Shown: piece after piece, positions 1,830-53,565 of the stretch
How positions within the stretch are numbered: the stretch's first letter is position 1
How the letters are laid out: each line of letters begins with the position of its first letter
Source of the DNA: a phage
Length of the DNA stretch: 64,000 nucleotides
Assembly: GCA_025812035.1 (NCBI GenBank)
Contig: GCA_025812035.1_4719.1
Direction: 5' to 3' (one strand)
Notes under the pieces: model-generated
The model's input: the letters and a program-made list of their open reading frames with translations, nothing else
Databases searched by the model: none
What the model was told of the DNA's origin: nothing
Program-made: the position numbers and the translations under genes

Positions 1830-2486
1830 TTAGCTTGCGGCTTCTTCATTTGTTTCAGGTTTGCTTCCCCCTAACAAACCGTCGAACAGACCCGTATGTT
1901 TCAGGTAGAAGAGAGCGATAGCGCCCATCGCCGCTGCGCTCGTTGCTGTTAACGCAACCCCGGCACGATACTGCCATTTACGGTCAGGCTTTTGATCAAG
2001 CGCCATACGACGCATGTATTCAGCCTCTGCTTCATTCCGATGGATTTCGGATTCTGCCAGACGGGCTAAGGTATCGCGGTCAAGGTTAGCATAACGTGCG
2101 TTCATGGTGATTTCCTCTTGTTTGGAAGTTGATTGCTTAGTGAATTCTTGGTCAACAGTCGTTTCGGTTGGTTCAAACGGCTGGTTGTTCATTTTCTGGT
2201 TGTTATTAGACATGATAGACTCCTTCGATTTTTGAGATGAAATTGATTTAAACCATCGTGGGTGGCGATATTCGGTTTTACAGGTACAGTTAAGTTTCTC
2301 GTGTAGTATTGCGTAAAAACGTTTTGCGCCTACACGTAAGGCTTTCAGCATTACCCATCCACGAGCACTCAAACGGTGTAGTTGTTGCGGTATATCAAGT
2401 TTCCTAGCCAAGCGAAAGTATCTCTCAATCACTTCGATAGGAAACCATTGTTGTTCCACATCGGTGAGACTGAAAGTCCTATCCAT
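1830..2486 (-). CDS. hypothetical protein with C-terminal transmembrane segment
   Basis: ORF track gives 1830-2513, but that start is GTG and overlaps the conserved motif. The first ATG is at 2486. C-terminal hydrophobic stretch VALTATSAAAMGAIALFYL. Confidence 0.5.
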   Translation of the reverse strand: MDRTFSLTDVEQQWFPIEVIERYFRLARKLDIPQQLHRLSARGWVMLKALRVGAKRFYAILHEKLNCTCKTEYRHPRWFKSISSQKSKESIMSNNNQKMNNQPFEPTETTVDQEFTKQSTSKQEEITMNARYANLDRDTLARLAESEIHRNEAEAEYMRRMALDQKPDRKWQYRAGVALTATSAAAMGAIALFYLKHTGLFDGLLGGSKPETNEEAAS

Positions 2487-2510
2487 GATTGAAATCTCGC
2501 TGGCTTGCTT

Positions 2511-2534
2511 CACCTAGGTAATATAGCCGTGAAA
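2511..2534. promoter_or_regulatory. conserved 24-nt motif CACCTAGGTAATATAGCCGTGAAA (copy 1 of 4), candidate phage promoter
   Basis: Near-identical copies at 17192, 45348 and 53508. Here it lies in the divergent region between the 1830-2486 (-) gene and the 2636-4099 (+) operon. Confidence 0.45.
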
Positions 2535-12094: not shown

Positions 12095-12095
12095 A

Positions 12096-12524: not shown

Positions 12525-12525
12525 G

Positions 12526-12942: not shown

Positions 12943-12990
12943 GGTTATTTCCTCGTAGTGTTAAGTGGGGACACACCTGTCCCCGAATAA

Positions 12991-13906: not shown

Positions 13907-13929
13907 TCGTTCTATAACAAACTTTTATT

Positions 13930-13952
13930 GGAAGGGAATATGTTTCCCTTCC
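13930..13952. other. perfect 9-bp GC hairpin GGAAGGGAA/TTCCCTTCC (family-related)
   Basis: Sits between co-directional genes and has no adjacent U-tract. Confidence 0.4.
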
Positions 13953-13970
13953 TTGGGTTCGGTTATTGCG

Positions 13971-14246
13971 TTACGCAGCTTTACAGCTTGCGTAAACCAC
14001 AATCGTTCCGTTGTTGATTGCCTCAACAATTTCCTGGGTCAGTTTGGTCGCTAATTTATTATCCGTCCCCGGTACGTAATAACCTTCTCCTGTTTCAGTG
14101 ATTAAGCGATAACGTACTAATCCCACCGTACGCTCAACGCGTACCACCTTTTCAAGTTTGTGTTTGATGATCTTCGTCAGACTGATTGTATCTGACGTGT
14201 AGATCGCTTTATAAACTTTGTTCTTTGCTGTCGGTTTCATCAACAT
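13971..14246 (-). CDS. hypothetical protein (91 aa)
   Basis: ORF in the array. Confidence 0.5.
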   Translation of the reverse strand: MLMKPTAKNKVYKAIYTSDTISLTKIIKHKLEKVVRVERTVGLVRYRLITETGEGYYVPGTDNKLATKLTQEIVEAINNGTIVVYASCKAA

Positions 14247-15102: not shown

Positions 15103-15183
15103 TTTAGATCTCTCTTTGTTAATGGTAAATAAATAACGGCATAAAAAGGGGACAACGCTGTCCCCGTGTTAGGTATTATCTGC

Positions 15184-16074: not shown

Positions 16075-16333
16075 CTAATTGCTCCCGTTGTTCTTTTAAG
16101 TATGCGGGAAGCTGGTCTTCCCGTACCGTTCCGATTTCTAACATGATGTACCAGCGTTGTTCGGAAGCCTGCCATTGAAAACTGCTCTGTAAACGTAGGA
16201 TGCTAGGATCATGTACCTTGCTTGCGCTGTAACGGTTGAACCAGCCCAGGTAAGCGGCTTTCCCCTCCTCATCGGCAACGTAACGCTGCACGCTGTTCTT
16301 CCCTTTGTTTTCGTATCCTGTTGCATGTATCAT
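16043..16333 (-). CDS. hypothetical small protein (~96 aa)
   Basis: ATG at 16333 overlaps the upstream stop as ATGA. ORF track gives 16043-16390. Confidence 0.5.
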   Translation of the reverse strand: MIHATGYENKGKNSVQRYVADEEGKAAYLGWFNRYSASKVHDPSILRLQSSFQWQASEQRWYIMLEIGTVREDQLPAYLKEQREQLDVLFSHHRGS

Positions 16334-17106
16334 GCGAACGTTTCTCCTGTAACGTGTTGTGGGCGTTGCAGCATGGTAGCATCCCAGCATACCAGCTTGC
16401 TTTTCTCAAGCATCTTCCGCGCCGTATCAACGCTAACGCCAGGATGCATGACAGGTAGCCAACGTTCGTTAAGCACCTTGGCTTCCAGGCGTTGCTTGCG
16501 CTTATTGTATTGTACCTCGCTAACCCATGCGTAACCGAAAGGATGGATAACCCGTGGGTAGTAACGTTTAAGCATCATCAGTCTTTGCTGATAAAGCTTA
16601 TCGGAACCCTCACCAACGAATAAGGCAACCCGTTCCAACCGCTTGGTGTAATACGTTCCGGTGGTATGATTGATCCAACCAGGAAGCGTTCGTACATCAT
16701 TTTCGAGTGTTCCTGATACGTTATGCACTTCACCGCTATACACCGTCCCAACAACCTGATTCGTTGCGTCCACCATCGACCGTGGCAAAGCATCCGCGGT
16801 AGGATACAACCATGCATCCCCAAGCTGCTCTCCCGACGCAAGTACCCGTAATCCGCTTGCGCTCACCCGCAACGGATGCTGGCTCTTATGCGCACGCAAC
16901 TGCACCACAGATAAGTCTACCGGATGGGCGATGCAACAGCCACGCTGACGGAACAGTCCAACCTCACCATCCACCCCTTCGATCATGCTTCCTTCCGAAC
17001 CGTTCCACCAACGTTTAACCTTCACGCATTCGGCTTGCACCGTTTCAGGCAACGTTAAATAATCGTGTTCAATAAACACCACATCAAAAATCAATGCTTC
17101 TTTCAT
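16330..17106 (-). CDS. paralog family H protein C (unknown function)
   Basis: Single HPFGY motif and related C-terminus. SD AGAGGA upstream. Confidence 0.65.
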   Translation of the reverse strand: MKEALIFDVVFIEHDYLTLPETVQAECVKVKRWWNGSEGSMIEGVDGEVGLFRQRGCCIAHPVDLSVVQLRAHKSQHPLRVSASGLRVLASGEQLGDAWLYPTADALPRSMVDATNQVVGTVYSGEVHNVSGTLENDVRTLPGWINHTTGTYYTKRLERVALFVGEGSDKLYQQRLMMLKRYYPRVIHPFGYAWVSEVQYNKRKQRLEAKVLNERWLPVMHPGVSVDTARKMLEKSKLVCWDATMLQRPQHVTGETFA

Positions 17107-17191
17107 CTAAAAAGATCCTCTGTTTTTTCACGTTAATTAAACAACGTATTGATTTCTATTCGATAGCAATACGAACATCGTACGTACGCAT

Positions 17192-17215
17192 CACTTAGGT
17201 AATATAGCCGTGAAA
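17192..17215. promoter_or_regulatory. conserved 24-nt motif (copy 2; CACTTAGGTAATATAGCCGTGAAA)
   Basis: One mismatch to the consensus. About 90 nt from the start of 16330-17106. Confidence 0.45.
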
Positions 17216-17858
17216 GGATTTGTGTTACAGAAAGGGTTTTGTTGTGTTTTAAGAAGGGATGGATAGTGATGTTATCTGAAAGGAGGATTTCAAGAAAGGT
17301 CTTGATTGAAGTAGGTGGAGTAAGTGAAGAGGTGAATAAACGAGAAGGGTTAGTTTGGTTGATGTAAGATGTTATCTTGTTATTGTTTTCATGTTTATCT
17401 TAGGTTATGTCTTAATTGTTCATATTCCTGATTGTTTAAGTTGTCTTATTTATCTTGTTTATATAAATAAAATTAAATTATAAAGTCAATCAACATGCTT
17501 ATAAGTTGGATAACTCAAAAAAACCATTTGTGATACTCTTCTTCACGTTGTTCATCAGAGTATCTCGTCTATACTCATTGCATTCGTATACGACATAACC
17601 GTTATACGCTAACGCTACGCTTATAGCTTGATAACTCTAAGGATAAAAACATAAACTCGCTTCGCTCGTTTAGTTTTTCTTTTTCTTAGAGTTATCTTGT
17701 TGCTCGTCTCTAAAGGACTTCGCTCCTCCCCCGTCCCCCGAAGGGGCCGAGGTCGTGGAAATTTTACTTTCCAAATACATTTACAACATCTGTAAACTTT
17801 TACTCCAGGTACTTAATCTTATCATTAGAAATTATCAAAGAGAATAATGACAGCATAA
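17216..17858. other. large noncoding region: candidate replication origin or noncoding RNA locus
   Basis: No ORF. C-depleted purine-rich stretch, AT-rich block (17455-17490), and five or more TTATCTT-type repeats. Confidence 0.35.
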
Positions 17859-17890
17859 CCTTCCTCCAACCCAACAGGGAAGGAGGAAGG
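17859..17890. terminator. conserved two-tier GC hairpin (family copy 4)
   Basis: CCTTCCTCC-AACCCAACAGGGAA-GGAGGAAGG, 3' of the 17906-18799 gene. Confidence 0.5.
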
Positions 17891-17905
17891 GAGAGATTAA
17901 TTCAA

Positions 17906-18799
17906 TTAATCGACAGTGTTATAACCGAATACAGCTTTACCGTAAGTGTGAGTACCGTCGGTTAACGACACCACTAGTACGTGGTTGTATGCGTCGTTAA
18001 CACCCTTGTCAGTAGACCCTGTGGTAGCTCCGTTATAGACAAAGGTAGCTGTTTGCAGGTTGGCTTTCAGCTCGTTAGTGATATCATCGCTGACACCCGT
18101 CTGCTCTTTGATCAGCGTAGTCAGGTTACCTGCCAGGCTTTCACCGATCTTGGTTTCGTTACTGGTGATCGCCTGTAAACCTGTAGTGTAGGAGCTGAAG
18201 TCTAACGGATAGGTTAACAGACGCGCTGAGGTCTTGGTACCATCACCTTCATCAACGTAGGTTAAGTTACCCAGGTTGGTAACCTTGATGATGTTAGACA
18301 GATCCAGCGTTGTGTTATAAACTTTAACTTGAACAGAGCCGTACCACGCCAATGAATCTTCTTTGGCTTCCAGGGTGATCGTCTGGATACCCGATTGCTC
18401 AAAGGTAACCGGCGTAGCTAACGTTTCGGCTTTGATGTCTTTTGCTTTATCCAGGAACTTATCACCAGATGGCGTGATCATACCGTAGCGTTTCGCTACA
18501 AGGTCAACCACATCACCGATGGTGGTGTTCGCATCAACGTTAACACGCACCGCGATCTTCTGGAACCACTTAGCCAGATCCAGACGATGGTAGGTAACAT
18601 CGCGGTTATTGAAGTAAGGAGTACCTTCACCAGGACTGAGTGTTAAAGTTGCTTCTGGAGCAGAAGCGCTTTTAGATTTAAGGACGTATTTAAGGTCGGT
18701 ATATTTAAAGCTGGCACCAGTGTCGGCGTTAAGCTGGTTGATCTCATCAACGATAAGCTGCCATGGTGTTTTTAAAGTAAGCGATACTTGAGCTGTCAT
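17906..18799 (-). CDS. probable abundant virion protein (unknown function)
   Basis: Optimised codon usage and a monocistronic layout. ORF track start at 18832 is TTG; the ATG at 18799 has SD GAGGAAG. Confidence 0.6.
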   Translation of the reverse strand: MTAQVSLTLKTPWQLIVDEINQLNADTGASFKYTDLKYVLKSKSASAPEATLTLSPGEGTPYFNNRDVTYHRLDLAKWFQKIAVRVNVDANTTIGDVVDLVAKRYGMITPSGDKFLDKAKDIKAETLATPVTFEQSGIQTITLEAKEDSLAWYGSVQVKVYNTTLDLSNIIKVTNLGNLTYVDEGDGTKTSARLLTYPLDFSSYTTGLQAITSNETKIGESLAGNLTTLIKEQTGVSDDITNELKANLQTATFVYNGATTGSTDKGVNDAYNHVLVVSLTDGTHTYGKAVFGYNTVD

Positions 18800-18854
18800 T
18801 TTCTTCCTCGATAGTTTGTACATCACTCTCAAAAGATGTAAGTGTTTACAGAAA

Positions 18855-18873
18855 TTAATATATTTTATATTAA
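18855..18873. promoter_or_regulatory. AT-rich perfect palindrome TTAATATA-TTT-TATATTAA in divergent promoter region
   Basis: 8-bp inverted repeat with 3-nt spacer between two divergent, codon-optimised genes. A TATAAAATA element is adjacent. Confidence 0.4.
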
Positions 18874-18942
18874 ATGTGAATATTATGGAGAACGACTCCG
18901 AATCTCCTTTTCGACCATCAAAAAATCAGAGGACACACAATC

Positions 18943-19485
18943 ATGGCCTTAGACTTTAACAAAGCAGCGAAATCCCTTCTGCTCGATCTCATCAACACCA
19001 AAGCAACCCGCGCACTGTCCGAAGAAGAACTGCAGTTCGGTACTCCGACAGCATCTTCCGAACATGAAAAGAACACCGTTATCCAGCTGAATGCTGCGCC
19101 TGAAGCAGCTAACCTGCAGGGTACCTAGCAGTTCTTCTACAATCGTCTGGCTCTGTCCGAAGTTTTCGCTGACGTAACCGGTGATGTTACTTTCGAACTG
19201 CCGCACGGTACTGACAGCATTCAGGCTTCTGAGCTGGTAAGCAAGCTGGTCACCAAATTCGGTCTGGCTTCCCTGACCGGTGAAATCAATGAAGAAACCT
19301 TCCAGCTGTCTGCGGGTACTGTTGGTCAGGTAACCCTGACTGCGATCGAGGGTGGTATGGTATATACCGGCACTCTGCAGGTTGCACTGACTTATGCAGC
19401 AGCACCAAAAGACGAACTGGCAACCGTTCTGGCGAATAACGTAGCTGAAGGTTTCGAGAAACCGACCGTTAGCGTTGTTGGCTAA
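18943..19485 (+). CDS. highly codon-optimised 181-codon gene interrupted by in-frame amber codon (TAG at 19126-19128)
   Basis: SD GAGGA, ATG at 18943, frame open to the double stop TAATAA at 19483-19488 except for one TAG. No ATG in the 119 codons after the TAG. Confidence 0.6.
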
Positions 19486-19682
19486 TAAGCGCATAGAGCA
19501 ATAGTATGGGTTTTGTACAGCTCGGCTATTGCTCTTCTACAATTTGGTTGTAACAATCTGCGTGGTTGCACGCTTATCTTTTTCATTGAGCGCTTCGTAT
19601 GAAGCGTAGTGTTGAAAGGGTTGTGGATCTCCTCAAGCGGCCAGGGACCCAGACCAACCTAAATAAACACAAACAAATCTTA

Positions 19683-19720
19683 AGCCCCTCCTCAGCCCTT
19701 ATCGGGTTGGGGAGGGGTCT
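19683..19720. terminator. conserved two-tier GC hairpin (family copy 5)
   Basis: AGCCCCTCC ... CCCTTATCGGG ... GGAGGGG between convergent genes. Confidence 0.45.
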
Positions 19721-19781
19721 TATTACGTCTTTATGCGTTTCGTTCGTTCTGGTGTGCTTTAGAACGGTTTATGGTAGAGTT

Positions 19782-20542: not shown

Positions 20543-22591
20543 TCAAATACCTTTGGTTCCCTTCACGTGATGTGCAATTTCTTCAACCATTGCACGCAAC
20601 GCACGAAGCTGCTGGTCGTGTTCGTACCAACCACCCAACAGAACCCCGCTGTACACCATGGTGTCAAGACTTAACAGTCCTTTATCTGATACGTTGATCA
20701 TTTCCGGGAACTGTTCTTGAACACGCTGTGCGATGACACCGATCTTCTCTACATCAGGATCGTAGTTGTGACGGAAACGGGCAAGCCCGCTGCGCGCCAT
20801 TTCACGTAAACGTTCGCTAAGAGATTCCGGATGGTCTTTCAGGTAACGGATGTCATGTTTACTACGCTCATCTGAACGGATGTATGCGTTAGGAACATCG
20901 ATGTTACTGTTGAAGTACAGCGCGCTACCACCACCTGCAGAGTTACCCCAATAGAAGCGTGTGATCTCGCCACCACCATTTTCCGTGATGATAACATGTT
21001 TACCTAAACGCGTGCCACCATTGCCGTCAACGAAGACCAGTTTGTTTCCACTGTAAGAACCCCAGAACAAACGGGTATCGATGATGTGCGTTGCAGCGAG
21101 ACGAGCGTTACGCGGTGTAGAATACACAGTGTTAACATCTTGCTGTGCTTGCGCATCGGAAGCGATACCGTAGTTCTGTACATTACCTAACCCCACCTGC
21201 GCTTTCGTAACAGCGTGTGGGTTATCTCGACGGTTAGCGTGAGCGTTAACCAGATCGCCCGCCAGTTTTTGAATAGCCCAGTTGGTAGACTGTGGTGTCA
21301 TGTAGCGGTTCGTTGCAGAACCACCTTGCGCCTCAGCTTGGTTAGCGGTTGGGTAGTTCTCAACGCTTCCTAACCCCACTTGTGCTTTAGACACTTGGTG
21401 CGGGTTGTTCTTGTCAGCGATGTGTGCATTAAGCGGAACTAACGCAAAGGTCTCGATGGACGCTTTGGTTGTGTTCGGTGCCATTAATCGGTTAGCTGCA
21501 ACACCGGCACGCGCTTCATCCTCAGACGCCATTGGGTAGTCTTGCACGTTACCCAACCCAACCTGCGCTTTGGTTACTCTGTGTGGGTTGTTGTAATCGG
21601 CTTTATGTGCGTTAAGCGGAATCAATGCGAACTGTTCGATCGCTGCAACGGTACGTAGCGGCGTCATGAAACGGTTGTTCGCGGTTCCGCCCTTCGCCTC
21701 GCTATCCGAAGCGGTTGGGAAGTTATCAACGTTCCCAAGGTTAACCTGTGCTTTGGTGACGCTATGCGGGTTATCTTTACGGTTAGCGTGAGCATCGACT
21801 AGGTCACCAGCCAGTTTAGCGATTGCCCATCCAACCGTTTGTGCGGTCATGTATCGGTCGGGTGCGGTACCGGCTTCTGACTCCGCCTTGTTTGCGGTAG
21901 GATAGTTCTGTACATTACCTAACCCAACTTGGGCTTTGGTGGTTTCGTGCGGGTTATCGGTACGGTTAGCATGCGCGTAATGCAGATCGGTAAGATTTTT
22001 ATCCGCTGCTTGCATGTCTTTGCGTAACTGATCGATTGCTGCCCAGAGACGGTTATCGGACGCAGCGTCACCGATAAGTATCGCGGCTTTCAGCGAATAG
22101 ATCGCTAAGCAAAGATGTTCGGTACCGTAGATAGCACTAACGTGGTGGATGTGTGGTTCAGGCGGATAAAGTTCCGGTTTGTTCTTGATATCATCCCAGT
22201 TGATCGGTCGATCGTCAAGTTTGAGTTCTTCGATAGCCTGATATAACGCGTCAATAAGACTTACGTAAACACCACCGATGATACGATAGTCGTTAACTAA
22301 CGTACCCTCGATGTCGTCGTTGATGATGGCGATGGCTGCACAGATTTCTTTACCAGCGTAAAGTGTAGCGTCCTGATACAAGAAGATGGGTTTATAATCC
22401 ACGCCTCGCACCAGTGTCTTACCGGTAAGCTTTTCGGTGATAACCAGACTTTCGGTGAAGAACGGTCCGCCATCGAGGGCGTAACATTTATTCTCGGTTC
22501 GTGGAACGGTATGCTCTTCACCAACGATGTGGTTGCTATCGAGTGTACCGGTCCAGTCCTCGGGGTACTTCAGGGTAATTGGTGTTGACAT
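20543..22591 (-). CDS. tail fibre protein with C-terminal intramolecular chaperone (peptidase S74-like) domain
   Basis: Five or more repeats of NPHxVTKAQVGLGNVxNY. C-terminal SDERSKHDI and IGVIAQRVQEQFPEMI match the self-cleaving chaperone domain of endosialidase-type fibres. Confidence 0.8.
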   Translation of the reverse strand: MSTPITLKYPEDWTGTLDSNHIVGEEHTVPRTENKCYALDGGPFFTESLVITEKLTGKTLVRGVDYKPIFLYQDATLYAGKEICAAIAIINDDIEGTLVNDYRIIGGVYVSLIDALYQAIEELKLDDRPINWDDIKNKPELYPPEPHIHHVSAIYGTEHLCLAIYSLKAAILIGDAASDNRLWAAIDQLRKDMQAADKNLTDLHYAHANRTDNPHETTKAQVGLGNVQNYPTANKAESEAGTAPDRYMTAQTVGWAIAKLAGDLVDAHANRKDNPHSVTKAQVNLGNVDNFPTASDSEAKGGTANNRFMTPLRTVAAIEQFALIPLNAHKADYNNPHRVTKAQVGLGNVQDYPMASEDEARAGVAANRLMAPNTTKASIETFALVPLNAHIADKNNPHQVSKAQVGLGSVENYPTANQAEAQGGSATNRYMTPQSTNWAIQKLAGDLVNAHANRRDNPHAVTKAQVGLGNVQNYGIASDAQAQQDVNTVYSTPRNARLAATHIIDTRLFWGSYSGNKLVFVDGNGGTRLGKHVIITENGGGEITRFYWGNSAGGGSALYFNSNIDVPNAYIRSDERSKHDIRYLKDHPESLSERLREMARSGLARFRHNYDPDVEKIGVIAQRVQEQFPEMINVSDKGLLSLDTMVYSGVLLGGWYEHDQQLRALRAMVEEIAHHVKGTKGI

Positions 22592-39313: not shown

Positions 39314-41857
39314 TTACTGCTCTTCACGTTCCAACAGATACTCGGAAGCGGTAATACCATTTACCGTACGTACTGCTTTCAGACGAGTATCATCGTTCAG
39401 AATCACGGTAACAGACTGTAGACCTTTTACTTTGGTCTCGAAGGTCTTGAACACCTGATCCAGCATACGAGCAATGCTTGGGTTGGTTGCAGCTGACGCG
39501 TGAGTGTAACCGCTCTGGTTCAGATTCAGAATCTTGGCATTGGTCGGTACGCGAACAACAACATGCGGACGCATAGCGAACACGCTGTGATTGAACCAGT
39601 AAGCATCGTTGCTGTCTTCGTCAGTGACGATGTCTGGATTAACACGCATATCCTCAACAGCCGCATCAGCCAAACGACGTTCGATTTCGTCAGCGTCCAG
39701 AGAGCCATCTTTCTCCAGTTCTGCACGATACTCACTCATGGCAACCAAATGACGTTCACGATTCACCGTAGATTTTTCGTGAGCGACTTTCAGGTAGTCA
39801 TGCATGTTGTACAGTTCTGCCATAGACAGACGAATGTTCCACTGACCATCACCGTCACGGTTGCAGTAGAGACACTTCAGCATGTTGACCCAGGTATGGT
39901 AGCAATTGGAGAACTCATCTTCAATAAACTTCTGATCCATTTTAAGATCGTGAATCAGCCAGCCGGACAGTTCTCCGATATCATCAACGAAGCTAGAGAT
40001 GGTGGTTTCAGAGAAGTCCTTCGGTACGATACGTTTGATCAACTTGTTGACGTCTTTGGTCATGCTATCGTTCAGGAAATGCCAAATACGCAGAGGAATG
40101 ACATCTCGATACTGTTGCATGATCTGACGATAAGCCGCAATATCGTCGCTACGACCTTTATCAATAGACAACGCATCCAGGAATTCATGGATAGCATCCA
40201 GCTCTTTGTCGGTATAAGTTCCCAGATAGGAATTGACCGTGGCAAGGAATGCTAATGCGTCGTTTTGGTTGACGTCGGTGTTGGTCTGCTGGATGATCGC
40301 CACAGCAGCTTTGGTTTCAGCATCCTCAACGCTCGATGCTGCGATCGCATCGGTAACGGTAAACAGTTTCATTTCGCGTTGTTCGCCGACAACGATTGGT
40401 TCACGTTGAACCGGTTTGTTGAGGCTAACGCGGACAACCTCCGATTGCGCGATGCGGTCCAGTTTTATCATTTCCTGCTCTGCCATACGACGAGCGGTTG
40501 GATCTGATTCAAGTTCGATGTATTCCACTTCTTCCTCCGTGAGGGATGTAATGTCAACAATGGTTTCATGAAGAATTCCGTTTTCGTCGATACGTGCTCG
40601 ACGAGCGAAGTGCCTGAAGTCATACAACGTTGGCCAGCGACAATTAGGTGCGTAGTCTTTGGCCTTCAGACGCATCTGCATAAATTCTTCATGTTGAACA
40701 ACACGACCGTAACGCTTAGCATCTTCGGTCGCATCAATGGGATTAACGGTCTTTGTTGCCGTAGCGGAACGAACCGTACGGATGGGTTCCGGTTTAGTCT
40801 GCACAGGTTCAGGTTGAACAGGTTTCTGCTGTCCAGACTTAACATGCCATTCGGGTTCTTCGTACCGTTCAGCGAACTGTTCGGCTGCTGCAAAGATATC
40901 GTTGATACCACCGACGTCTCCTTCGGGATTCGTCGAGTAGATACGTGGTTGTGGTGCCTCGTAACGCGGCGCTGTGGTAGCAGGTGCATCATCAACGATA
41001 GGATCATCACCAACATCATACAAACGGTTGAACGCACAATCCTTCGAATCAATGTACGATGGAGCTTGTGGTTGAACAACCGTCGGTCGAGGTTGTGCGC
41101 CGTATCCTGGCATCGTTGGAGCCATACCACGCATAACCGCTGGACTCGGTTGGTATTGCGGTTGCGGATAGGTTCCATATGCAGGTTGCTGCGGTTGACC
41201 GTACCCGGTGCTGGCCATCGCATTTGCTTGTGGTCCGCGATACGTCATTCCCATCTGCATCACCTGTTGCTTCAAACCACGCGATTTTTGCGCGATTTGC
41301 GCCAGGCTCCCGTTTTTATTGAGCTGTGTATACTTATTCGCGGCTTCCGGGTTAACGCGTGATAACTCAATCGCACGATAATACTCCGGGTATTGATTAG
41401 GTTCAAAGAGCCACGTTACAAGATGATACAGCGCAACCGTGCTCACGGCAGCAGTGACGATCTGGTCGGTGGACGCATTCTGCGGCATCGGGTTGATGTA
41501 AGAGAATACGTTCCAGCAGCAATCTTCAACAAGCGATTCCATCATCATATCGCTATTGGTATAACGCGCGACGAAATCGGTTTGTATCTTATCTTGCTGT
41601 GCGAAGTCTTTCAAGACGTTAAAGATAGCCTGACGGATTTTGACGATCGTTGCTTCTTGGGTGATGAAGTTATAGTTCTGCTGATACGCCGGTTGCTGGT
41701 ATTGTGGTGGTTGATAGGTGTTATTCGGGTATGGGTTGTACGGCGGTTGCTGGTATTGTTGCTGACGTACCTGCTCCGCGGCATAATTAATCGTGCTCGC
41801 ATAAGGGTTTTCGCTATAGCCCATTTGCTGGTACATGTTGTTACTACCATTATACAT
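39314..41857 (-). CDS. large protein (847 aa) with Q/Y/P/N-rich prion-like low-complexity domains
   Basis: N-terminal region is QQ/PY-rich; a second Q/P/Y-rich stretch lies near residue 190. The remainder is a normal globular sequence. Confidence 0.65.
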   Translation of the reverse strand: MYNGSNNMYQQMGYSENPYASTINYAAEQVRQQQYQQPPYNPYPNNTYQPPQYQQPAYQQNYNFITQEATIVKIRQAIFNVLKDFAQQDKIQTDFVARYTNSDMMMESLVEDCCWNVFSYINPMPQNASTDQIVTAAVSTVALYHLVTWLFEPNQYPEYYRAIELSRVNPEAANKYTQLNKNGSLAQIAQKSRGLKQQVMQMGMTYRGPQANAMASTGYGQPQQPAYGTYPQPQYQPSPAVMRGMAPTMPGYGAQPRPTVVQPQAPSYIDSKDCAFNRLYDVGDDPIVDDAPATTAPRYEAPQPRIYSTNPEGDVGGINDIFAAAEQFAERYEEPEWHVKSGQQKPVQPEPVQTKPEPIRTVRSATATKTVNPIDATEDAKRYGRVVQHEEFMQMRLKAKDYAPNCRWPTLYDFRHFARRARIDENGILHETIVDITSLTEEEVEYIELESDPTARRMAEQEMIKLDRIAQSEVVRVSLNKPVQREPIVVGEQREMKLFTVTDAIAASSVEDAETKAAVAIIQQTNTDVNQNDALAFLATVNSYLGTYTDKELDAIHEFLDALSIDKGRSDDIAAYRQIMQQYRDVIPLRIWHFLNDSMTKDVNKLIKRIVPKDFSETTISSFVDDIGELSGWLIHDLKMDQKFIEDEFSNCYHTWVNMLKCLYCNRDGDGQWNIRLSMAELYNMHDYLKVAHEKSTVNRERHLVAMSEYRAELEKDGSLDADEIERRLADAAVEDMRVNPDIVTDEDSNDAYWFNHSVFAMRPHVVVRVPTNAKILNLNQSGYTHASAATNPSIARMLDQVFKTFETKVKGLQSVTVILNDDTRLKAVRTVNGITASEYLLEREEQ

Positions 41858-41891: not shown

Positions 41892-43691
41892 TCAATCGAT
41901 TATGTCACGATCGTTAATTTCTACAATTTCTTCATCGAATCGACCGACGTCTTTCTTCAAGCCTGCATTTGTTGCTGCAACGTCATTTGCAATTTGTGGG
42001 GTAACGATTAACCGACCACGCTCGTCGATAGGTGCGTACATACTGAACTTCTGACGTCCGGTTGGTTCGGAGTGTGGAAGATTCAGATAGCTCGCACAGA
42101 ACGGGATGGAACCACTAACCAAACGACTCTCGTCAGCCAACGCAGCACCGCCTGCGTTTTGGCTCTGGAGAACAACATGCGTGCTCACTTTGAACAGCAT
42201 GCAATCACCCGGTGACTGAATCGATGTTGCCACTTTCTCACGCTTATCACGATTGCTCTGGATATTGAGAATCGCTTCTGTTGCAACTTGATTTCGCAAC
42301 GCCTTCTGTACATCGCGATTGGTCATCTCTTTACGGTTGTTCTGTCGTTTACCACGTTCTGTGGTTTTAAGATGGAACCCCAGTTTAAAGATGCTCTTAC
42401 GCACATCCTCCATGACATATTCCAACACCATCAATTCCTTACCGAACATCGTCGTGGTATCAACACGACTCATTTCGATAGTAACATTGTCAATCAGATA
42501 CGCCATAAATTCGTAGAAGTCATCGCAAGGAATATTTTCCTGTTTGAACTTCTTCTGCTGAATTTCGTCGACGTAAAGATCAAGGCTATCGATGTGGTGG
42601 TTTACATCACGCAACAAACGCGCATCCGCGTTGTTGTTATTAAAGATAATCAAACCGAGTAATGTACGCCAATGGTCTGGCGCATTAGCGAACTCTTCAA
42701 CCGGATAGTCTTCCGGAAAACGATCGTAATAGCGGTCGATGAGATACAAGAACGCACCGACAAGGCCAAGAACAATACGTTCCGTGCCTCCACGTCTTAC
42801 AGCAATTTGAATATCAGGATGTTTATAACGTACAGCGTTAGCGCTACGGCTTTTACCGCTCTTACTAATACTAAAGCCTTTAGGAATAACCCCCATGGTG
42901 CGATAGATTACCCATTGGTCGCGCGGAAAATCGCGTTCAGCAAGATTCCGTCCGGTTACCGCTTCGACACCCGCGAAACGTCGGAAACATTCACCTACCC
43001 CGTACTTCGCAAAGAGATAGTGACCCAATGTGGTTACACTGGTGTGGTTGATGTTGTCACCGTTCACTTTACTTTGTTTGGTAAGATGATAGATTTGCGA
43101 CCAGGGTAACGATAGATAGTGACGATAATCGACACCGGTTGGAGTATCATTACTCAGGAACTGATACGGCGTACGTTTAACTGTGATTTTGTCACGCGGA
43201 AGCATGATGAACGCCATGTCTTTCGTGTAACTGATTACAGGGTCAGCGAGTACCGCACTGAGAATAAAGTTTGCACCACGTAGACGCATTTTACCACCCT
43301 GCCCTACTGCGGGTAATAGGAGAGGGTGTCGGATAATGCAGTAGTCCTTTCCTGGTTCACGACGGTCACCTGATTCCATCGCGCCATACCAGCGGAATTC
43401 TAACATCACCATAAACACATCGGACGGCGCAAGGTCAAAGGTCAGCTTACCGCTATCCTTCCCTTTGGTTTTCTTTCCTCCGCTTAAGTAGTGAAACTGT
43501 TCGCGGGCCACACAACGACGTAGGCCATGATACACCAGATCCTTAGGTAAACTATCTTTGCTGTTCCGCCAAAGACGATCAACATAGGACTCAACATCTT
43601 GCATCTTATCGACGACGATGTTGCGCGCTATCTTCTCGTTCATCTTCGGTGCAAGCCCAGCGACAGCTTTGCAGAATCTAGGATCCATCAC
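41892..43691 (-). CDS. hypothetical protein (599 aa)
   Basis: Long ORF. No motif recognised. Confidence 0.6.
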   Translation of the reverse strand: MMDPRFCKAVAGLAPKMNEKIARNIVVDKMQDVESYVDRLWRNSKDSLPKDLVYHGLRRCVAREQFHYLSGGKKTKGKDSGKLTFDLAPSDVFMVMLEFRWYGAMESGDRREPGKDYCIIRHPLLLPAVGQGGKMRLRGANFILSAVLADPVISYTKDMAFIMLPRDKITVKRTPYQFLSNDTPTGVDYRHYLSLPWSQIYHLTKQSKVNGDNINHTSVTTLGHYLFAKYGVGECFRRFAGVEAVTGRNLAERDFPRDQWVIYRTMGVIPKGFSISKSGKSRSANAVRYKHPDIQIAVRRGGTERIVLGLVGAFLYLIDRYYDRFPEDYPVEEFANAPDHWRTLLGLIIFNNNNADARLLRDVNHHIDSLDLYVDEIQQKKFKQENIPCDDFYEFMAYLIDNVTIEMSRVDTTTMFGKELMVLEYVMEDVRKSIFKLGFHLKTTERGKRQNNRKEMTNRDVQKALRNQVATEAILNIQSNRDKREKVATSIQSPGDCMLFKVSTHVVLQSQNAGGAALADESRLVSGSIPFCASYLNLPHSEPTGRQKFSMYAPIDERGRLIVTPQIANDVAATNAGLKKDVGRFDEEIVEINDRDIID

Positions 43692-43727: not shown

Positions 43728-45203
43728 TTACTTTTTCGATGAAGCTTTCTCAAGAATCTTGAAAAAGGTCATACCTATACCAACAACGGCCGCGGTTATA
43801 CTCGCAGCGGCTTTCCAGACATCGACGTTACGTTGACGTCGCGCTTCTTCCGCTTCGCGTTGTCTTTTTGCTTCATCATCACGACGGCGTAGCTCAGTTG
43901 TGAATTCATCGTGCTTACGTTTCGCGTCCTCGTCTCGGCGACGCATTTCAGCGATAAGCTCATCATGCTTACGTTTTGCCTCTTCATCACGACGTTTAAG
44001 TTCAGCTTGATGTTCTTCTCGTATTTGTTTACGAAGATCATCTTGACGTTTCATTTCGGCTTGGTGGTGTTCCATCCTACGTTCAGTATCGTCTTTAAGC
44101 TGTTTAACAATTTCCGCATGTTGCTTATTTTGTCGTTCCGCATCGGTTTTATACAATTCGTGTAATTGCTTTATTTCCGATGCGTGAGCGTCAGCCTGTC
44201 GTTTCATTTCGTTGGTATGATCGACCTGCAGTTGCTTTATTTCAGCCATCAGCCCTTTAAGGGTTTCTTCTGTTGACTTACGTTCATAGCTACGTTGGTC
44301 GAAATCATTTTTGTAGGCTTCTTTTTGGATGGGGTCGCGCCAATGCAATGCCGATTCACGTGTCGGAAAAACATTGTACTTCCACATCTCTTTTTCCAAA
44401 TCTTCGACCGGTACGAAGACGGAGTCATTATTCCCGAAGGTAACCAACATACCTGGCGCGCCTGCTCCATTCGTTGGTTTTATTTCGAACGCTTTTCCCA
44501 GAACGTTAACCCATAAGCTATACGGATTATGAAAGTCTGGTGGCGTCCAATGGATAGTGAGTTGCGTTCCGAGAATCCGGAAACCCTCTGTTTTTCCCGT
44601 CAAGCTTCGCGCACACGTTGCGATGTAGGGGTGATCAATCCCTTTCGTAACGTGGTCTGCGCTTTTGTATTCTCCTTTAACTTTTACGACTGCCACGTTG
44701 ATTTGCGCGACATAAATAGGTTGATTAAAGTTCAACGTGTTGAGGTCAATTTGGCATACTTCATCCAGCGTATCGTACCAGTCTTGCTGGTCTAATAGAC
44801 GCGGTATTTTCTCCGTGTTAACGATGCGACGGATATGCGGTTTCCTTATCGCGTAACCTGTGCCGTTTTTAACACGAAGTATATCCCGACGTCTACCCGC
44901 GTAGACGAAGTTTCTGAATGCACCATTCGCATTAGATACGTCATGGCTGTCAACTATTACAGGACTACGAAATTTTGAACGCCTTACGATCCTGAATGTA
45001 TTGCCGTCCTCAACCCTACCAGGAATGTACTGGAACATATTGTCGGAGGTGATAACCAACACGGTATGGTTGGATTCATTAATACACGCCCATCCTAATT
45101 CCAGGTCATATAACGGTTCAGCATAACCGTCAATGCGATATGCGTGCGTACCATCCCACGGTTCGAACGCGGTATCACATATTGGCATGGAGGGCATCGT
45201 CAA
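43728..45203 (-). CDS. tail-anchored membrane protein with charged coiled-coil repeats
   Basis: Globular N-terminal domain, about 150 aa of K/R/E/D-rich coiled coil including three 18-aa tandem repeats, then C-terminal hydrophobic anchor AAASITAAVVGIGMTFF. Confidence 0.65.
   Translation of the reverse strand: MTMPSMPICDTAFEPWDGTHAYRIDGYAEPLYDLELGWACINESNHTVLVITSDNMFQYIPGRVEDGNTFRIVRRSKFRSPVIVDSHDVSNANGAFRNFVYAGRRRDILRVKNGTGYAIRKPHIRRIVNTEKIPRLLDQQDWYDTLDEVCQIDLNTLNFNQPIYVAQINVAVVKVKGEYKSADHVTKGIDHPYIATCARSLTGKTEGFRILGTQLTIHWTPPDFHNPYSLWVNVLGKAFEIKPTNGAGAPGMLVTFGNNDSVFVPVEDLEKEMWKYNVFPTRESALHWRDPIQKEAYKNDFDQRSYERKSTEETLKGLMAEIKQLQVDHTNEMKRQADAHASEIKQLHELYKTDAERQNKQHAEIVKQLKDDTERRMEHHQAEMKRQDDLRKQIREEHQAELKRRDEEAKRKHDELIAEMRRRDEDAKRKHDEFTTELRRRDDEAKRQREAEEARRQRNVDVWKAAASITAAVVGIGMTFFKILEKASSKK
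43860..44020. repeat. three imperfect ~54-bp tandem repeats inside the 43728-45203 CDS
   Basis: Encode ELKRRDEEAKRKHDELIA / EMRRRDEDAKRKHDEFTT / ELRRRDDEAKRQREAEEA. Coordinates approximate. Confidence 0.5.
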
Positions 45204-45347
45204 CCTCCATCAGATTGAAAACTATCACGCATAATGCATTTCCCTTTTCTTGTTCTTATCGAGCCGACAGCCGACGGTTTCAGCATCGTTCCTAGCGCGA
45301 GAACGACCTTACGTGTTGTCTATGCCTTATTCATCGCAGGCGTCTGT

Positions 45348-45371
45348 CACCTAGGTAATGTAAGCGTCAAA
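45348..45371. promoter_or_regulatory. conserved 24-nt motif (copy 3; CACCTAGGTAATGTAAGCGTCAAA)
   Basis: Part of the ~90-bp cassette 45348-45437 with a family hairpin. Confidence 0.45.
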
Positions 45372-45403
45372 TTTTTTCTATTTGCAACGATAAACAGCAT
45401 AGA

Positions 45404-45437
45404 AGCCTCCCCCAACCCTTGCGGGCTGAGGGAGGCT
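45404..45437. terminator. conserved two-tier GC hairpin (family copy 8)
   Basis: AGCCTCCC ... GGGAGGCT, 3' of the 740-aa gene. Confidence 0.5.
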
Positions 45438-45534
45438 GACTTATGTATCACGGTGCCGGATGAATGTCCGGTGCAATGAAACCATCTGCAACGTTGTCGT
45501 CAAGAATATCATCCAACGAAGCAGCTACGGTAGT

Positions 45535-47757
45535 TCAGTTAGTCTGAACCGGCAGCTTGATGTTTTCAGTGTAGACCTTACGCAGGTTCACGACGTTAAT
45601 CAGACCCAGCAGCGGGCAGTTGTTAACGAAGCGGCAGCGCGGCTGAACCATGGTTTCTTTAGAAACCTGACCGTTACGGGTAACCTGAGCAACAGATACC
45701 AGTTCCGGTACATACAGGAACATACCGAAGGTCAGCGGATCCGGAGAACCCTGGATACCACGAGACAGGGTCACGAAGATCTTATCACGCAGCAGGACGT
45801 TCGGGTTATCTACAACCACGAAGTTGAAGCTTACACCAACGGTACGGAAATCACCATCGGTCTGCAGGAACTGCGGGATGTAGTTGTCGGTTGCTACTAC
45901 GCAACGCGGTTTCTCATCAGCGTTGGAAGACAGCAGCTGCAGAGCTGGCTGATAACCAGACTCAGAGTACATGCGGTATGCCATCTCACGAATCACGTTC
46001 ATGATCGCAGCGGACACTTCAGCACGACGTTCTGCAGTGGTGGTACCCTGAACGGATTTCGCCAGGTCCAGGTTGATTTCTTCGAACCACGGACGGATCA
46101 GGTAACGACCGAAACCTTCGATCTGGATGTCACCGAACTGACGGAAGCGAGAGGTCGCAACTGCTTTCAGTGCGTCTTTGTAGCTGAACAGTTTCTCAAC
46201 CATCAGGTTGTCGAAACGTGCGTTAGCCGCTTGGATCAGAACGTCCAGGTCAGCAGCGTTTTCTTCCCAATCAAGCGGACGAGGAATGGAGAACGGAGCC
46301 AGCAGACCGATTGCGTAACGCTCTTGCTTCATGTTGAAGTCAAGGTGCTTACCACGTTCACGACGGTTGCTGTTGTTACGACGGATACGCAGTTCGTAAC
46401 CAACCAGTTTGAAGCTCAGGTCGTCAGCCAGGTCTTTGAATTCTTGGCTCTTACGCGGCTGTTCGATGTTGTCCTGATCAACCAGGCGATACAGTTCAGC
46501 GTTAGCGCCGTTAACACGCAGACCCGCTTTCTCTACGTTGGAAGAACCGTAAACTTCGATAGCCAGCTGAGCAGCGGATTTCGCATCGATGATGTCCTGC
46601 AGCGCTTCGGCTTTCGCACCTTTAACGTCAACGGTGTTCTCATCAACGAAGATGGAGTGAGTGTCGAACGCCAGGGTCATTTTGCGGAAGTCGCCTTCCA
46701 GAGATTTCTGGAAACCGTTGGTGATCAGACCGGATACGTCGAACGGAACGTAAGAGGTTTTGCTGTGCTTAGCGGATTTGATTTCCACCAGGATTTTGGT
46801 CAGCGTGATCTGAGCATCCAGCGCGTCGGTGTTGTCGCTGTAACCGTTAGCCAGAATGCTATCGTCTTCAGCGATACCGATCATGTCGATCAGTTTATCA
46901 ACAGCCAGGTAAGACGTTTTATAAGTTACGCCTTTAATTTCGATGTCACGCGGAGCAACGATAGCTTTGTCAACGAAGTACTGCGCGTTAGCATCGTCAG
47001 CACGATAGATCGGGTGCAGGTCGGTCACGTCGTTGGACAGAACGTCGTTGTACATGAACGCGTCCAGCAGCGGACGACGTACCCAATCAGCCGGAGTACC
47101 GTCAGCGTTACGACGCAGATGGTTGAATACCAGCGGACGACGGAAAGATACGTCATAACCGATCTGGTTCGGAGCCAGAACGATGGTGTTGTACAGTTCG
47201 TTACCCATGCGGCTCAGACGAGAAGCCTTCACGTTGAACACAACGGAGTACGGCATCATGTCGCGCAGTTCTTTCTGGTCGTAGGACAGCTGAACCAGTT
47301 CTTCAGATTCGCAACCGCAGGAATCAGCAGCCATCATGACGAAGTTAGAGCTGTCAACTTCACGACCTGACGGAGTGGTGCTGATGTTCATGGAACGTGC
47401 TTGTTTAGCGTATTCCACCGGGTTACCATGAGCCAGCATGATCAGTGCTGCTGCACGAGCCTGCTGTGCGTTCATGGTGAACAGCTGTTCTTCAATACGC
47501 TGCTTCTCTTCCGGAGTGGTGGTTTCGAAGCCCAGCATAGACAGAACCGGTTCTTCTGCTTTACGGATGTCGCTGCTGAAGCTCTTAACATCCATATCGT
47601 TAACCAGTTTGTCCATGGATTTGAAATCAACCTTAGAAGCAGATTCCATAGACAGGAAGGTGTTTTCCAGACCTTTGTCTGCTGGTTTGCTACCATTAGC
47701 GGTCAGGAACTGGCGAGTGGCCGCGACCTGCTGGCTAAGAAGGGTTTTATCATTCAT
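45535..47757 (-). CDS. major virion structural protein (~740 aa; major capsid candidate, tail sheath not excluded)
   Basis: Strongly optimised codons (CTG, CGT, GGT, ACC, GAA). Monocistronic between a promoter-like region and a hairpin. Size is typical of jumbo-phage capsid proteins. Confidence 0.5.
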   Translation of the reverse strand: MNDKTLLSQQVAATRQFLTANGSKPADKGLENTFLSMESASKVDFKSMDKLVNDMDVKSFSSDIRKAEEPVLSMLGFETTTPEEKQRIEEQLFTMNAQQARAAALIMLAHGNPVEYAKQARSMNISTTPSGREVDSSNFVMMAADSCGCESEELVQLSYDQKELRDMMPYSVVFNVKASRLSRMGNELYNTIVLAPNQIGYDVSFRRPLVFNHLRRNADGTPADWVRRPLLDAFMYNDVLSNDVTDLHPIYRADDANAQYFVDKAIVAPRDIEIKGVTYKTSYLAVDKLIDMIGIAEDDSILANGYSDNTDALDAQITLTKILVEIKSAKHSKTSYVPFDVSGLITNGFQKSLEGDFRKMTLAFDTHSIFVDENTVDVKGAKAEALQDIIDAKSAAQLAIEVYGSSNVEKAGLRVNGANAELYRLVDQDNIEQPRKSQEFKDLADDLSFKLVGYELRIRRNNSNRRERGKHLDFNMKQERYAIGLLAPFSIPRPLDWEENAADLDVLIQAANARFDNLMVEKLFSYKDALKAVATSRFRQFGDIQIEGFGRYLIRPWFEEINLDLAKSVQGTTTAERRAEVSAAIMNVIREMAYRMYSESGYQPALQLLSSNADEKPRCVVATDNYIPQFLQTDGDFRTVGVSFNFVVVDNPNVLLRDKIFVTLSRGIQGSPDPLTFGMFLYVPELVSVAQVTRNGQVSKETMVQPRCRFVNNCPLLGLINVVNLRKVYTENIKLPVQTN

Positions 47758-52671: not shown

Positions 52672-53451
52672 TTACTCAGGATCGGCGTAGAAATGATGGG
52701 GATAGCCGGAGTACGATCCCGCGTTACCGGCTATGGATTTTTTCTGGGAATCGACGACGAGCGCATAGAACTGTCGGGAATTTGTTAGCGTTGAGAAATA
52801 AGAGGAAAGGACTTTTTCATTCAACGCATCGCAAGGTAGACAGGTGCGACCGCAAAACGTCACAATACGACCGTCAGGATAGATCTCACGAATCATTCTC
52901 CATTCGCCGATATCAACCGGCGATGGCGCTGCTACAGCACCCGTTATTGTTAAGTAACGATCGTACGTGGTGTGGCATTCTGGATGAATGTAGATCGGTT
53001 GGGTATCAGTGCTTTCGTTTTCTACCTGATCTTTGCTTACGTATACCTCAAGATAAATCGTTGGTAGTCCGGTTAGAACGCCGGTATCGCGACGTTTTTT
53101 GGTAATCCGGGGACGGATATTATCGAGCACACCTTCCAGTTTTTCTGCGATTTCGTCAGCCGGTAATATATACCCGTATGTTGGTTCTAGATCATCATCG
53201 TGACTGAATAAGATACGACAGTCGTTGTTATTTTCTGGTGCTTCAGGCGGAAAGATGATGGCTTGAACCGTATGACGTTCTGCGATATAAAATCCTTCAG
53301 GTCCCTCAGTTTTGGTAAGTGTAAAGGACCAGGATGAATGATCTTCAAGTGATGTGCCTTCCAGGAAAAAGTTCGTCCGGATTGGTGCGTCCCATTTTGT
53401 GATCATATTGGCGTGACCGATAGCGCCTAACTTTTGATAAATATCTGTCAT
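52672..53451 (-). CDS. paralog family Y protein (member 2)
   Basis: IREIYPDGRIVT. ATG at 53451 has SD GAGGA; ORF track start is 53547. Confidence 0.55.
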   Translation of the reverse strand: MTDIYQKLGAIGHANMITKWDAPIRTNFFLEGTSLEDHSSWSFTLTKTEGPEGFYIAERHTVQAIIFPPEAPENNNDCRILFSHDDDLEPTYGYILPADEIAEKLEGVLDNIRPRITKKRRDTGVLTGLPTIYLEVYVSKDQVENESTDTQPIYIHPECHTTYDRYLTITGAVAAPSPVDIGEWRMIREIYPDGRIVTFCGRTCLPCDALNEKVLSSYFSTLTNSRQFYALVVDSQKKSIAGNAGSYSGYPHHFYADPE

Positions 53452-53507
53452 GATTGTATCCTCGGTTGTTAAGAGAAATTTACAGCGATAACAGTAACCG
53501 TTGTTAT

Positions 53508-53531
53508 CACCTAGGTAATATAGTCGTGAAA
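53508..53531. promoter_or_regulatory. conserved 24-nt motif (copy 4; CACCTAGGTAATATAGTCGTGAAA)
   Basis: Part of the ~90-bp cassette 53508-53597. Confidence 0.45.
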
Positions 53532-53565
53532 TAAACTGGATTAACAAGAATAAGACAGCATAGAA

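Follow-up and report, generated by a model that had tools for sequence, protein, structure and literature searches.

The Goslar-clade member of the phiKZ gp122 core family: a conserved N-terminal domain, a modular helical rod and a candidate tail anchor under an early phage promoter

Nucleus-forming phages start out in a lipid vesicle, later occupy a nucleus with a protein wall, and build their capsids on the inner membrane; our literature search found no phage factor named as linking membranes to these structures. One locus in the window analyzed here, a 64,000-nucleotide stretch of phage DNA (contig GCA_025812035.1_4719.1 of assembly GCA_025812035.1), brings this question into focus. The region shares 94% DNA identity with Escherichia phage vB_EcoM_Goslar, a nucleus-forming jumbo phage of the Chimalliviridae, and its minus-strand open reading frame (ORF) at 43728..45203, of 491 codons, lies between the gene for the major capsid protein (MCP) and that for the beta subunit of the non-virion RNA polymerase (nvRNAP). 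What kind of protein does this frame encode, when is it made, and what could it connect?

The frame is a genuine gene. Its counterpart is Goslar_00040, annotated as a 'hypothetical protein' of 478 amino acids (aa), and the two products (in Goslar gp40, QBO63833 / YP_009820725) are orthologs with 88% identity. The start codon is likely the ATG at 45197, which gives a protein of 489 aa, because GGAGG stands 6 nt upstream of it and the same start is annotated in Goslar; the TTG at 45203, taken as the start in an earlier note made from the sequence alone, lies two codons further upstream. The target protein consists of a beta-rich N-terminal domain (N-domain, aa 1-288) and a continuous helix (aa 289-487) made up of a rod with 50-65% charged residues and, near the C-terminus, one hydrophobic segment. 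The earlier note had read the same layout, with an N-domain of ~300 aa, and in this it was right, though its call of a transmembrane helix is borderline. The parts of the gene are as follows.

43728..45197, minus strand: target coding sequence of 489 codons and a stop, orthologous to the gene for Goslar gp40
45204..45208, minus strand: Shine-Dalgarno sequence GGAGG, 6 nt before ATG 45197, by direct reading of the sequence
44334..45197, minus strand: N-terminal beta-rich globular domain, aa 1-288, the conserved family domain (hhalign, Foldseek)
43818..44333, minus strand: charged alpha-helical rod, aa 289-460, about 25-26 nm if one straight helix (composition, AlphaFold2)
44058..44243, minus strand: head-proximal half of the rod, aa 319-380, with an EIKQL motif every ~22 aa, 21% hydrophobic
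43842..44057, minus strand: four tandem 18-aa units, E[LM][KR]R[RQ]D[ED][EDL]A/R KR[KQ]H/R.E...., of ER/K single-alpha-helix-like composition
43752..43817, minus strand: C-terminal hydrophobic segment WKAAASITAAVVGIGMTFFKIL, aa 461-482, putative tail anchor, 100% identical in Goslar
43728..43751, minus strand: basic C-terminal stub EKASSKK and stop codon

The N-domain and its genomic setting identify the protein. Recognizable motifs run through the domain, namely INESxHxxLVI..IP (aa 38-59), HPY (aa 189-191), WVNVLGKAFEIKP (aa 229-241) and YNVFPTRESA (aa 274-283), and common N-domain motifs are legible in the family alignment. When N-domains only were compared by hhalign, the Goslar clade matched the group of RAY, RSF1, RTH11, Eowyn and SEGD1 (Prob 93%, E 2.6e-7, 226 columns) as well as the phiKZ/PhiPA3 group (Prob 86%, E 4.8e-6), and the latter two groups matched each other (Prob 96.7%). 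AlphaFold2 left the N-domain unfolded with 11 close relatives and reached a predicted local distance difference test score (pLDDT) of merely 55 with 14 more diverse rows; a Foldseek search of BFVD with such a low-confidence model returned about 30 matches at E <= 1e-3 (best 4e-11), all to uncharacterised chimallivirus proteins, including those of Eowyn, a RAY relative and 201phi2-1. Synteny points the same way: a gene of 330-380 aa follows MCP and precedes nvRNAP beta in each chimallivirus locus compared (PhiPA3 and PA7, which is phiKZ-like, Eowyn, RAY, RSF1, RTH11, Moabite, a Vibrio phage and SEGD1, which is SPN3US-like), and the order of MCP, this gene and nvRNAP beta, on the same strand, is kept in all 12 of the 12 loci examined. 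Because N-domain profiles, Foldseek matches and synteny agree, it is well supported that the target represents, in the Goslar clade, the Chimalliviridae core gene known in phiKZ as gp122.

This family, which includes phiKZ gp122, PhiPA3 YP_009217217.1, 201phi2-1 gp202, RAY gp001 and Eowyn gp144, is annotated throughout as 'hypothetical'. Its orthologs are spread over four unannotated PHROGs (7727, 15024, 7286 and 27450) and none has a Pfam family; the target protein itself gave no significant family in Pfam, PHROGs, NCBIfam or PADLOC, and a PDB sequence search with the N-domain gave no match. The only matches were sub-threshold ones to long-helix regions (xenorhabdolysin A, ZorA), and these were set aside. 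The PhiPA3 ortholog (gene 138) was identified by its accession, YP_009217217.1, and the 'gp122' of the Churi paper is another PhiPA3 gene. The target shares with its family the homologous N-domain, the slot between MCP and nvRNAP beta, an early-promoter motif and a helical linker ending in a hydrophobic or amphipathic helix, whereas the Goslar-clade rod is longer, at 150-195 aa against 45-100 aa elsewhere, and built partly of 18-aa repeats, the tail is far more hydrophobic than in phiKZ and PhiPA3, and the clade has diverged too far to match any PHROG.

The surroundings of the gene indicate when it is expressed, and involve the following features.

45535..47757, minus strand: upstream gene, major capsid protein (PhiKZ_MCP; PF25620, E 1.5e-217), a separate transcription unit
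45404..45437, minus strand: MCP terminator hairpin, -33 kcal/mol with flanks
45347..45377, minus strand: phiKZ-type early (virion RNA polymerase) promoter motif, AAAAAATTTGACGCT-TACATTACCTA-GGTGA, a conserved motif
45198..45346, minus strand: 5' leader of ~150 nt, from promoter motif to start codon, with no ORF in any frame
41892..43691, minus strand: downstream gene, nvRNAP beta subunit (phrog_2943, E 1e-119), ortholog of phiKZ gp123 and Goslar gp39

The hairpin that follows the MCP gene keeps its structure, with a largely different stem sequence (-28 to -33 kcal/mol with flanks), at the loci of two diverged relatives, P0014 and P0015, and is always flanked by CATAA and a T-rich TTATG; the proteins of those lineages are just 30% identical. 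The promoter motif lies 40 nt past the hairpin, and its 11-mer core (45352-45362), 155 nt upstream of the ATG, is invariant in four of four lineages. This motif agrees with the published early-promoter consensus of phiKZ, TATATTAC, and of 201phi2-1, ...WTTTRARR_BTATATTACDWHDGTG, and the same TAYATTAC motif after an A/T tract stands between the MCP gene and the ortholog (or gp121 plus gp122) in PhiPA3, PA7, Eowyn, Moabite and the Vibrio phage. In Goslar, where the virion RNA polymerase (vRNAP) is needed for early transcription of chmA, this gene carries GAAAAAAATTTCAGGGT-TATATTACCTA-GGTGA 70-80 nt before its ATG, almost the 32-mer of the target. On the downstream side the nvRNAP beta gene, whose Goslar counterpart is labelled nvRNAP in the Goslar proteome table, begins 36 nt past the target stop; we found no terminator between the two, and the arrangement suggests that they are probably co-transcribed. 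A scan for sigma-70 promoters and intrinsic terminators yielded no more sites than chance. Since a terminator and an early promoter lie between MCP and target and no terminator precedes nvRNAP beta, it is well supported that the target opens an early operon, which the virion RNA polymerase injected with the phage DNA transcribes, and does not belong to the late head module. The promoter that the earlier note had assigned to this gene as its own is thus present as a promoter-like motif, yet one that heads an operon running into the nvRNAP beta gene. A capsid scaffold would be co-expressed with the capsid gene in the late head module, a pattern that the target does not follow: terminator and early promoter intervene, and phiKZ122 RNA declines late.

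Published data on orthologs bear on both timing and location. In the portion of the phiKZ RNA-seq data available to us the columns carry no headers, and five-column blocks were taken as control and chmA knock-down time points. PHIKZ122 has values of 3405, 4255, 2580, 2200 and 945 in columns 1-5 and of 2895, 4753, 4960, 5776 and 5927 in columns 6-10, and the late-type PHIKZ177 rises from 2966 to 19742 in columns 1-5 and is flat in columns 6-10. On that column reading the gp122 transcript, as measured in phiKZ only, is early and independent of nucleus formation. For Goslar, the phage sheet of Table S4 of the structure preprint reports the virion proteome by liquid chromatography-tandem mass spectrometry (LC-MS/MS) and lists gp38 at ~25 copies, gp39 in trace, gp41 and gp42; gp040 / YP_009820725 is absent from this sheet, which reaches down to ~0.1 copy per virion. 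The table lists even trace non-structural proteins, and Goslar gp40 is therefore not a virion component. The earlier note had named a soluble virion component as the finding that would speak against a membrane protein, and with gp40 absent from the sheet this objection does not arise.

Several further copies of the promoter motif deserve mention in their own right. The Goslar chmA (Goslar_00189) copy, GAAAAAAATTTCAGGGTTATATTACCTAGGTGA, lies at 7969-7979 on the minus strand of the 165000-200000 segment of Goslar MK327938, and one-mismatch copies of the motif precede Goslar_00182 and Goslar_00210. In the window, the early-promoter-type motif TTTCACGnCTATATTACCTAGGTGA recurs on the minus strand at 53512-53522, 17196-17206 and 2515-2525, just upstream of or overlapping the program-called starts of the minus-strand ORFs 52672..53547, 16330..17106 and 1830..2513, respectively; these starts are probably called too far upstream, and none of the three frames has a PHROG match. 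The genes behind these motifs are unannotated and hence uninformative on timing. GTTCTGTACATTACCTAACCC occurs twice without mismatch on the plus strand (21179-21189 and 21911-21921), at a distance of 732 nt, inside the minus-strand ORF 20543..22591 (682 aa); the pair suggests an internal duplication in that gene, and its match to the promoter core is probably coincidental.

The rod is the most distinctive part of the protein. Up to about residue 290 the composition is ordinary, with 24% charged residues, whereas aa 301-460 are 51% K/R/D/E with no proline and a net charge of zero, and aa 395-457 reach 65% charged. An AlphaFold2 monomer model gives one uninterrupted helix over aa 289-487 at a pLDDT of 80-93. 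Hydrophobic residues recur along the rod with a period of 3.62 residues (= 18/5), above the 95th percentile of shuffles, and not of 3.5, and identity at lag 7 is at background level, so that the 'heptad-like' character proposed in the earlier note does not hold. Its 18-aa periodicity is real, the identity at lag 18 being 0.30 against a maximum of 0.23 across all lags in 1000 shuffles; the units, however, number four instead of three and start at aa 381, 399, 417 and 435, the first being more diverged. We did not recover the 54-bp DNA repeats that had been said to encode them: the units share merely 54-67% pairwise DNA identity and Tandem Repeats Finder reported no repeat at the DNA level, which argues for an old repeat kept at the protein level.

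The two halves of the rod differ in character. The tail-proximal half (aa 381-457) is 12% hydrophobic, rich in E, K and R, and contains 58 opposite-charge pairs at i/i+3-4 spacing against 31.3 +/- 4.2 in shuffles (z about 6). By its sequence this half looks more like an ER/K single alpha-helix than a coiled coil; with a period of 3.62 and hydrophobic contents of 12-21% over the two halves, the rod does not resemble a canonical heptad coiled coil, and the coiled coil of the earlier note is unproven. ER/K single-alpha-helix (SAH) domains, such as those of myosin VI/X and caldesmon, are rigid spacers. The target resembles them in its ~65% E/R/K/D, its few hydrophobics and its dense i/i+3-4 opposite-charge pattern, and differs in the head-proximal half (aa 309-380), in which 21% hydrophobic residues form a straight stripe that could allow this half to oligomerise; the monomeric form is that assumed in the AlphaFold2 model. 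A five-fold 11-aa repeat, apparent by eye in aa 319-373, was rejected, as identity at lag 11 is 0.11 against a shuffle 95th percentile of 0.21. For an 11-aa spacing, just an 11-aa indel among relatives and the 3.6-residue periodicity hold.

Comparison of close relatives, as the earlier note had suggested for repeat copy number, reveals how the rod evolves. Word-based homology searches found close relatives only, and public data hold versions of 460, 478, 489 and 507 aa, the differences being indels of exactly 11, 18 and 18 aa that all fall within the rod. These lengths correspond to ~3 and 5 helical turns, and the helical phase is therefore kept. The head-proximal half, which holds the 11-aa indel and one 18-aa indel, is the most diverged and most recombined segment. 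Between window and Goslar the N-domain is 98% identical, with a synonymous divergence (dS) of 0.11 and a ratio of nonsynonymous to synonymous divergence (dN/dS) of 0.10, while rod residues 330-380 are 49% identical with saturated synonymous sites and residues 381-457 have a dS of 0.68. The N-domain comes in two types and so does the rod, and each of the four possible pairings exists (window and P0001; Goslar and P0003; P0002; P0004-P0011), which, together with the low dS of the head and the high to saturated dS of the rod, shows that rod cassettes have been swapped by recombination. A phmmer search with the N-domain against 1.84 billion representative proteins recovered three clusters at 50% identity, namely the Goslar type, P0014 and P0015; the latter two are 30-31% identical to the target, share its architecture with rods of ~90-100 aa and clearly hydrophobic tails, and are encoded after a PhiKZ_MCP gene and before a gene of ~600 aa. 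Over the wider family, the linker from the last N-domain motif to the tail measures 49-60 aa in the phiKZ-like phages, RAY, Eowyn, Moabite and the Vibrio phage, 89-101 aa in RSF1, RTH11, SEGD1, P0014 and P0015, and 148-195 aa in the Goslar clade.

The rod ends in the only hydrophobic segment of the protein, aa 461-482, beyond which 7 residues remain. A hydropathy scan of the target detected no N-terminal hydrophobic segment or signal peptide, and the bulk of the protein would therefore be cytoplasmic; a lone hydrophobic segment within ~30 residues of the C-terminus is the layout of a tail-anchored protein. The segment has a Kyte-Doolittle (KD) 19-residue maximum of 1.76 (the classical cut-off is 1.6) and an Eisenberg <H> of 0.63, and it is invariant between window and Goslar (dN = 0). 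Its simple Hessa sum is +2.8 kcal/mol, and the best 19-mer elsewhere in the protein gives +11. As a single-span anchor it is borderline but plausible on these values. Every ortholog examined has a hydrophobic or amphipathic C-terminal helix. Tails are transmembrane-like in the Goslar clade, P0014, P0015 and Eowyn (17-20 uncharged residues, KD 1.76-2.0, Eisenberg <H> 0.60-0.70), intermediate in RSF1, RTH11, SEGD1 and RAY, and amphipathic in the phiKZ/PhiPA3 type, where they contain acidic residues, end in a basic ...LEKLFKKR and have a hydrophobic moment (muH) of about 0.5.

What might such a protein do? Our tentative preference, held as possible and short of probable, is for a tail-anchored protein that acts early as a spacer or tether and connects a lipid membrane with some phage structure in the cytoplasm. 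In this scheme the C-terminal hydrophobic helix would insert post-translationally into a lipid bilayer, either that of the inner membrane, or that of the early-infection (EPI) vesicle derived from it, or both. A stiff, salt-bridged helical rod of 11/18-residue periodicity would project into the cytoplasm and hold the N-domain up to about 25 nm off the membrane, where the N-domain would bind some phage component; the most plausible partner is one located in or close to the chimallin shell as it forms. The rod would serve as a length-adjustable, sequence-tolerant module, and the protein would act early in infection. For the Goslar clade, bilayer insertion, the stiff spacer of ~25 nm and binding of a phage partner by the head are what we infer from this anatomy. 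We favor an early tether because the protein would be made while the genome is in the EPI vesicle and the shell is being built, and because of a faint shell-proximity signal in PhiPA3, where pulldowns with ChmA-GFP and with ChmB-GFP, as well as miniTurboID with ChmA, recovered YP_009217217.1, a protein listed with 'no predicted function'. The membrane-tethered ruler of the earlier note survives in part: a tether fits the anatomy, the in-phase 11/18-aa indels and these weak proteomic data, but rod length varies ~4-fold across orthologs, so the protein is no universal ruler, and phiKZ-like tails do not span a membrane.

A more specific version, which we regard as doubtful, would make the protein the link between lipid and protein compartments, a golgin-like tether that docks the EPI vesicle or inner membrane to the nascent chimallin shell, with the repeat-built rod setting the gap. 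The tail-anchored eukaryotic tethers giantin, golgin-84 and CASP are far longer, form heptad dimeric coiled coils and use eukaryotic insertion machinery. The target shares with them the layout of a C-terminal anchor (in its case a candidate one) with few residues beyond it, a long helical rod predicted to be cytoplasmic and a far N-terminal region suited to capture, though there is no kinship in sequence or fold, its period is 3.6, and half of its rod is single-alpha-helix-like. Among bacterial proteins, ElaB, YqjD and YgaM (DUF883) of E. coli are tail-anchored, ~100 aa long, made in stationary phase and devoid of a globular head; their anchor in the inner membrane is C-terminal, has abundant Gly/Ala/Val and finishes in basic residues, and their cytoplasmic part is a helix that recruits a partner, a layout which the candidate anchor and rod of the target resemble. 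Pfam detects no homology between them and the target.

Several observations weigh against an anchored tether, and they lead directly to its main competitor. The simple Hessa sum of the tail is positive even in the target (+2.8 kcal/mol), which makes the tail borderline hydrophobic. In the phiKZ-like phages and the Vibrio phage the tail carries D/E, has a Hessa sum of +9 to +12 and cannot span a bilayer, and a function common to the whole family therefore cannot rely on a true transmembrane helix. The basis for shell proximity in PhiPA3 is slender, as the ChmA pulldown yielded one peptide, peak area was low, and the miniTurboID signal was low and short of significance. Genetic data from phiKZ would point to an important gene but are likewise ambiguous: an antisense-oligonucleotide (ASO) screen lists gene 122 as 'core genome, uncharacterized', with a weak (+) effect on plaques and ChmA level and a strong alteration of phage transcription at 30 min, and transposon sequencing (TnSeq) recorded zero insertions in PHIKZ118-124 against 16 in PHIKZ125, but these phenotypes may reflect polarity on the essential downstream gp123, and the authors discuss polar effects in general. 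A soluble or peripheral protein, with the tail as a protein- or surface-binding amphipathic helix, the rod as a spacer in a cytoplasmic complex (for example one bound to PhuZ filaments or to the nuclear shell from outside) and the Goslar-clade hydrophobicity incidental, would accommodate the non-transmembrane tails of the phiKZ-type orthologs. It would also suit the continuous range of tail hydrophobicity across orthologs, down to the D/E-bearing amphipathic tails of phiKZ and PhiPA3, the relatedness of the target's own end, ...KILEKASSKK, to ...LEKLFKKR, and the recovery of the PhiPA3 ortholog with ChmA and ChmB. Yet the transmembrane-like tails have values common among single-span anchors, and a segment 7 residues from the C-terminus with basic flanks is the classic tail-anchor layout; we consider this alternative rather unlikely. 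Our literature searches, which included Goslar gp40, SPN3US gp77 and 'tail-anchored' with 'phage nucleus', found no membrane anchor or function described for the gp122 family and no localisation or fractionation data for Goslar gp40.

The neighbors of the gene suggest other roles. Reviews describe partially assembled capsids on the inner membrane and leave the anchoring factor unnamed, and the protein could be imagined as anchoring procapsid assembly to the membrane or nucleating it, with its head binding the portal, scaffold or capsid protein and the protein itself left behind when capsids depart for the nucleus. The gene directly follows the major capsid gene in every lineage, the protein is absent from mature virions, and the ChmB pulldowns containing the PhiPA3 ortholog are rich in capsid proteins, all of which would suit such a role; the strong terminator and early promoter after the capsid gene, probable co-transcription with an nvRNAP subunit, and the fall of phiKZ122 RNA as late genes rise (in the RNA-seq columns available) speak against it, and we think it improbable. 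The opposite neighbor invites the idea of an nvRNAP accessory factor, which might chaperone the beta subunit or hold it until it is imported into the nucleus; this would explain the conserved operon. Invariant adjacency, probable co-transcription and the transcriptional effect of the phiKZ122 knock-down are in its favor, but gp122 is not among the published nvRNAP components or import factors, the knock-down effect may be polar on gp123, and anchoring in a membrane would keep the protein out of the nucleus, in which nvRNAP works. This role appears quite improbable. Finally, the earlier note had proposed lysis or superinfection exclusion, and one hydrophobic segment next to a long helix does recall a holin- or spanin-like protein. 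Phage i-spanins of the lambda Rz type have an N-terminal anchor, a periplasmic rod, a place in a lysis cassette and late expression. The target is likewise a phage-encoded helical rod with a candidate membrane anchor, but its predicted topology is the opposite, with a non-hydrophobic N-terminus and the protein bulk in the cytoplasm; lysis context and late expression do not apply to it, given that its neighbors are MCP and nvRNAP genes in place of an endolysin or holin (the lysis genes of phiKZ are orf142-144), and it is an early, conserved core gene and not an accessory one, with no PADLOC, Pfam or NCBIfam match. We regard this last proposal as very improbable.

The gene was already in the databases as hypothetical, and its phiKZ ortholog had been flagged by screens; new here are the assignment of the Goslar-clade protein to this core family, the architecture of putative tail anchor and ER/K rod, the assignment to an early operon and the modular, in-phase evolution of the rod. 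The family is a core one that two phiKZ genome-wide screens have flagged and yet left uncharacterised, and its Goslar-clade members, with a clear candidate membrane anchor and a long rod of naturally variable length, offer a genetically tractable handle on it. The 3.6-residue, 18-aa-repeat ER/K rod, with its in-phase indels and cassette exchange, also provides a natural example of a modular helical spacer.

Two neighboring frames complete the description of the locus. The third gene of the same apparent operon, at 39314..41857 on the minus strand, encodes an 847-aa ortholog of Goslar gp38, for which the sole domain hint is a sub-threshold match to Cas9_C_2 (E 0.0015); Goslar gp38 is present at ~25 copies per virion in the published proteome, although its gene follows an nvRNAP gene. 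On the plus strand, a 636-aa frame at 45460-47370 lies fully antisense to the major capsid gene and is almost certainly spurious.

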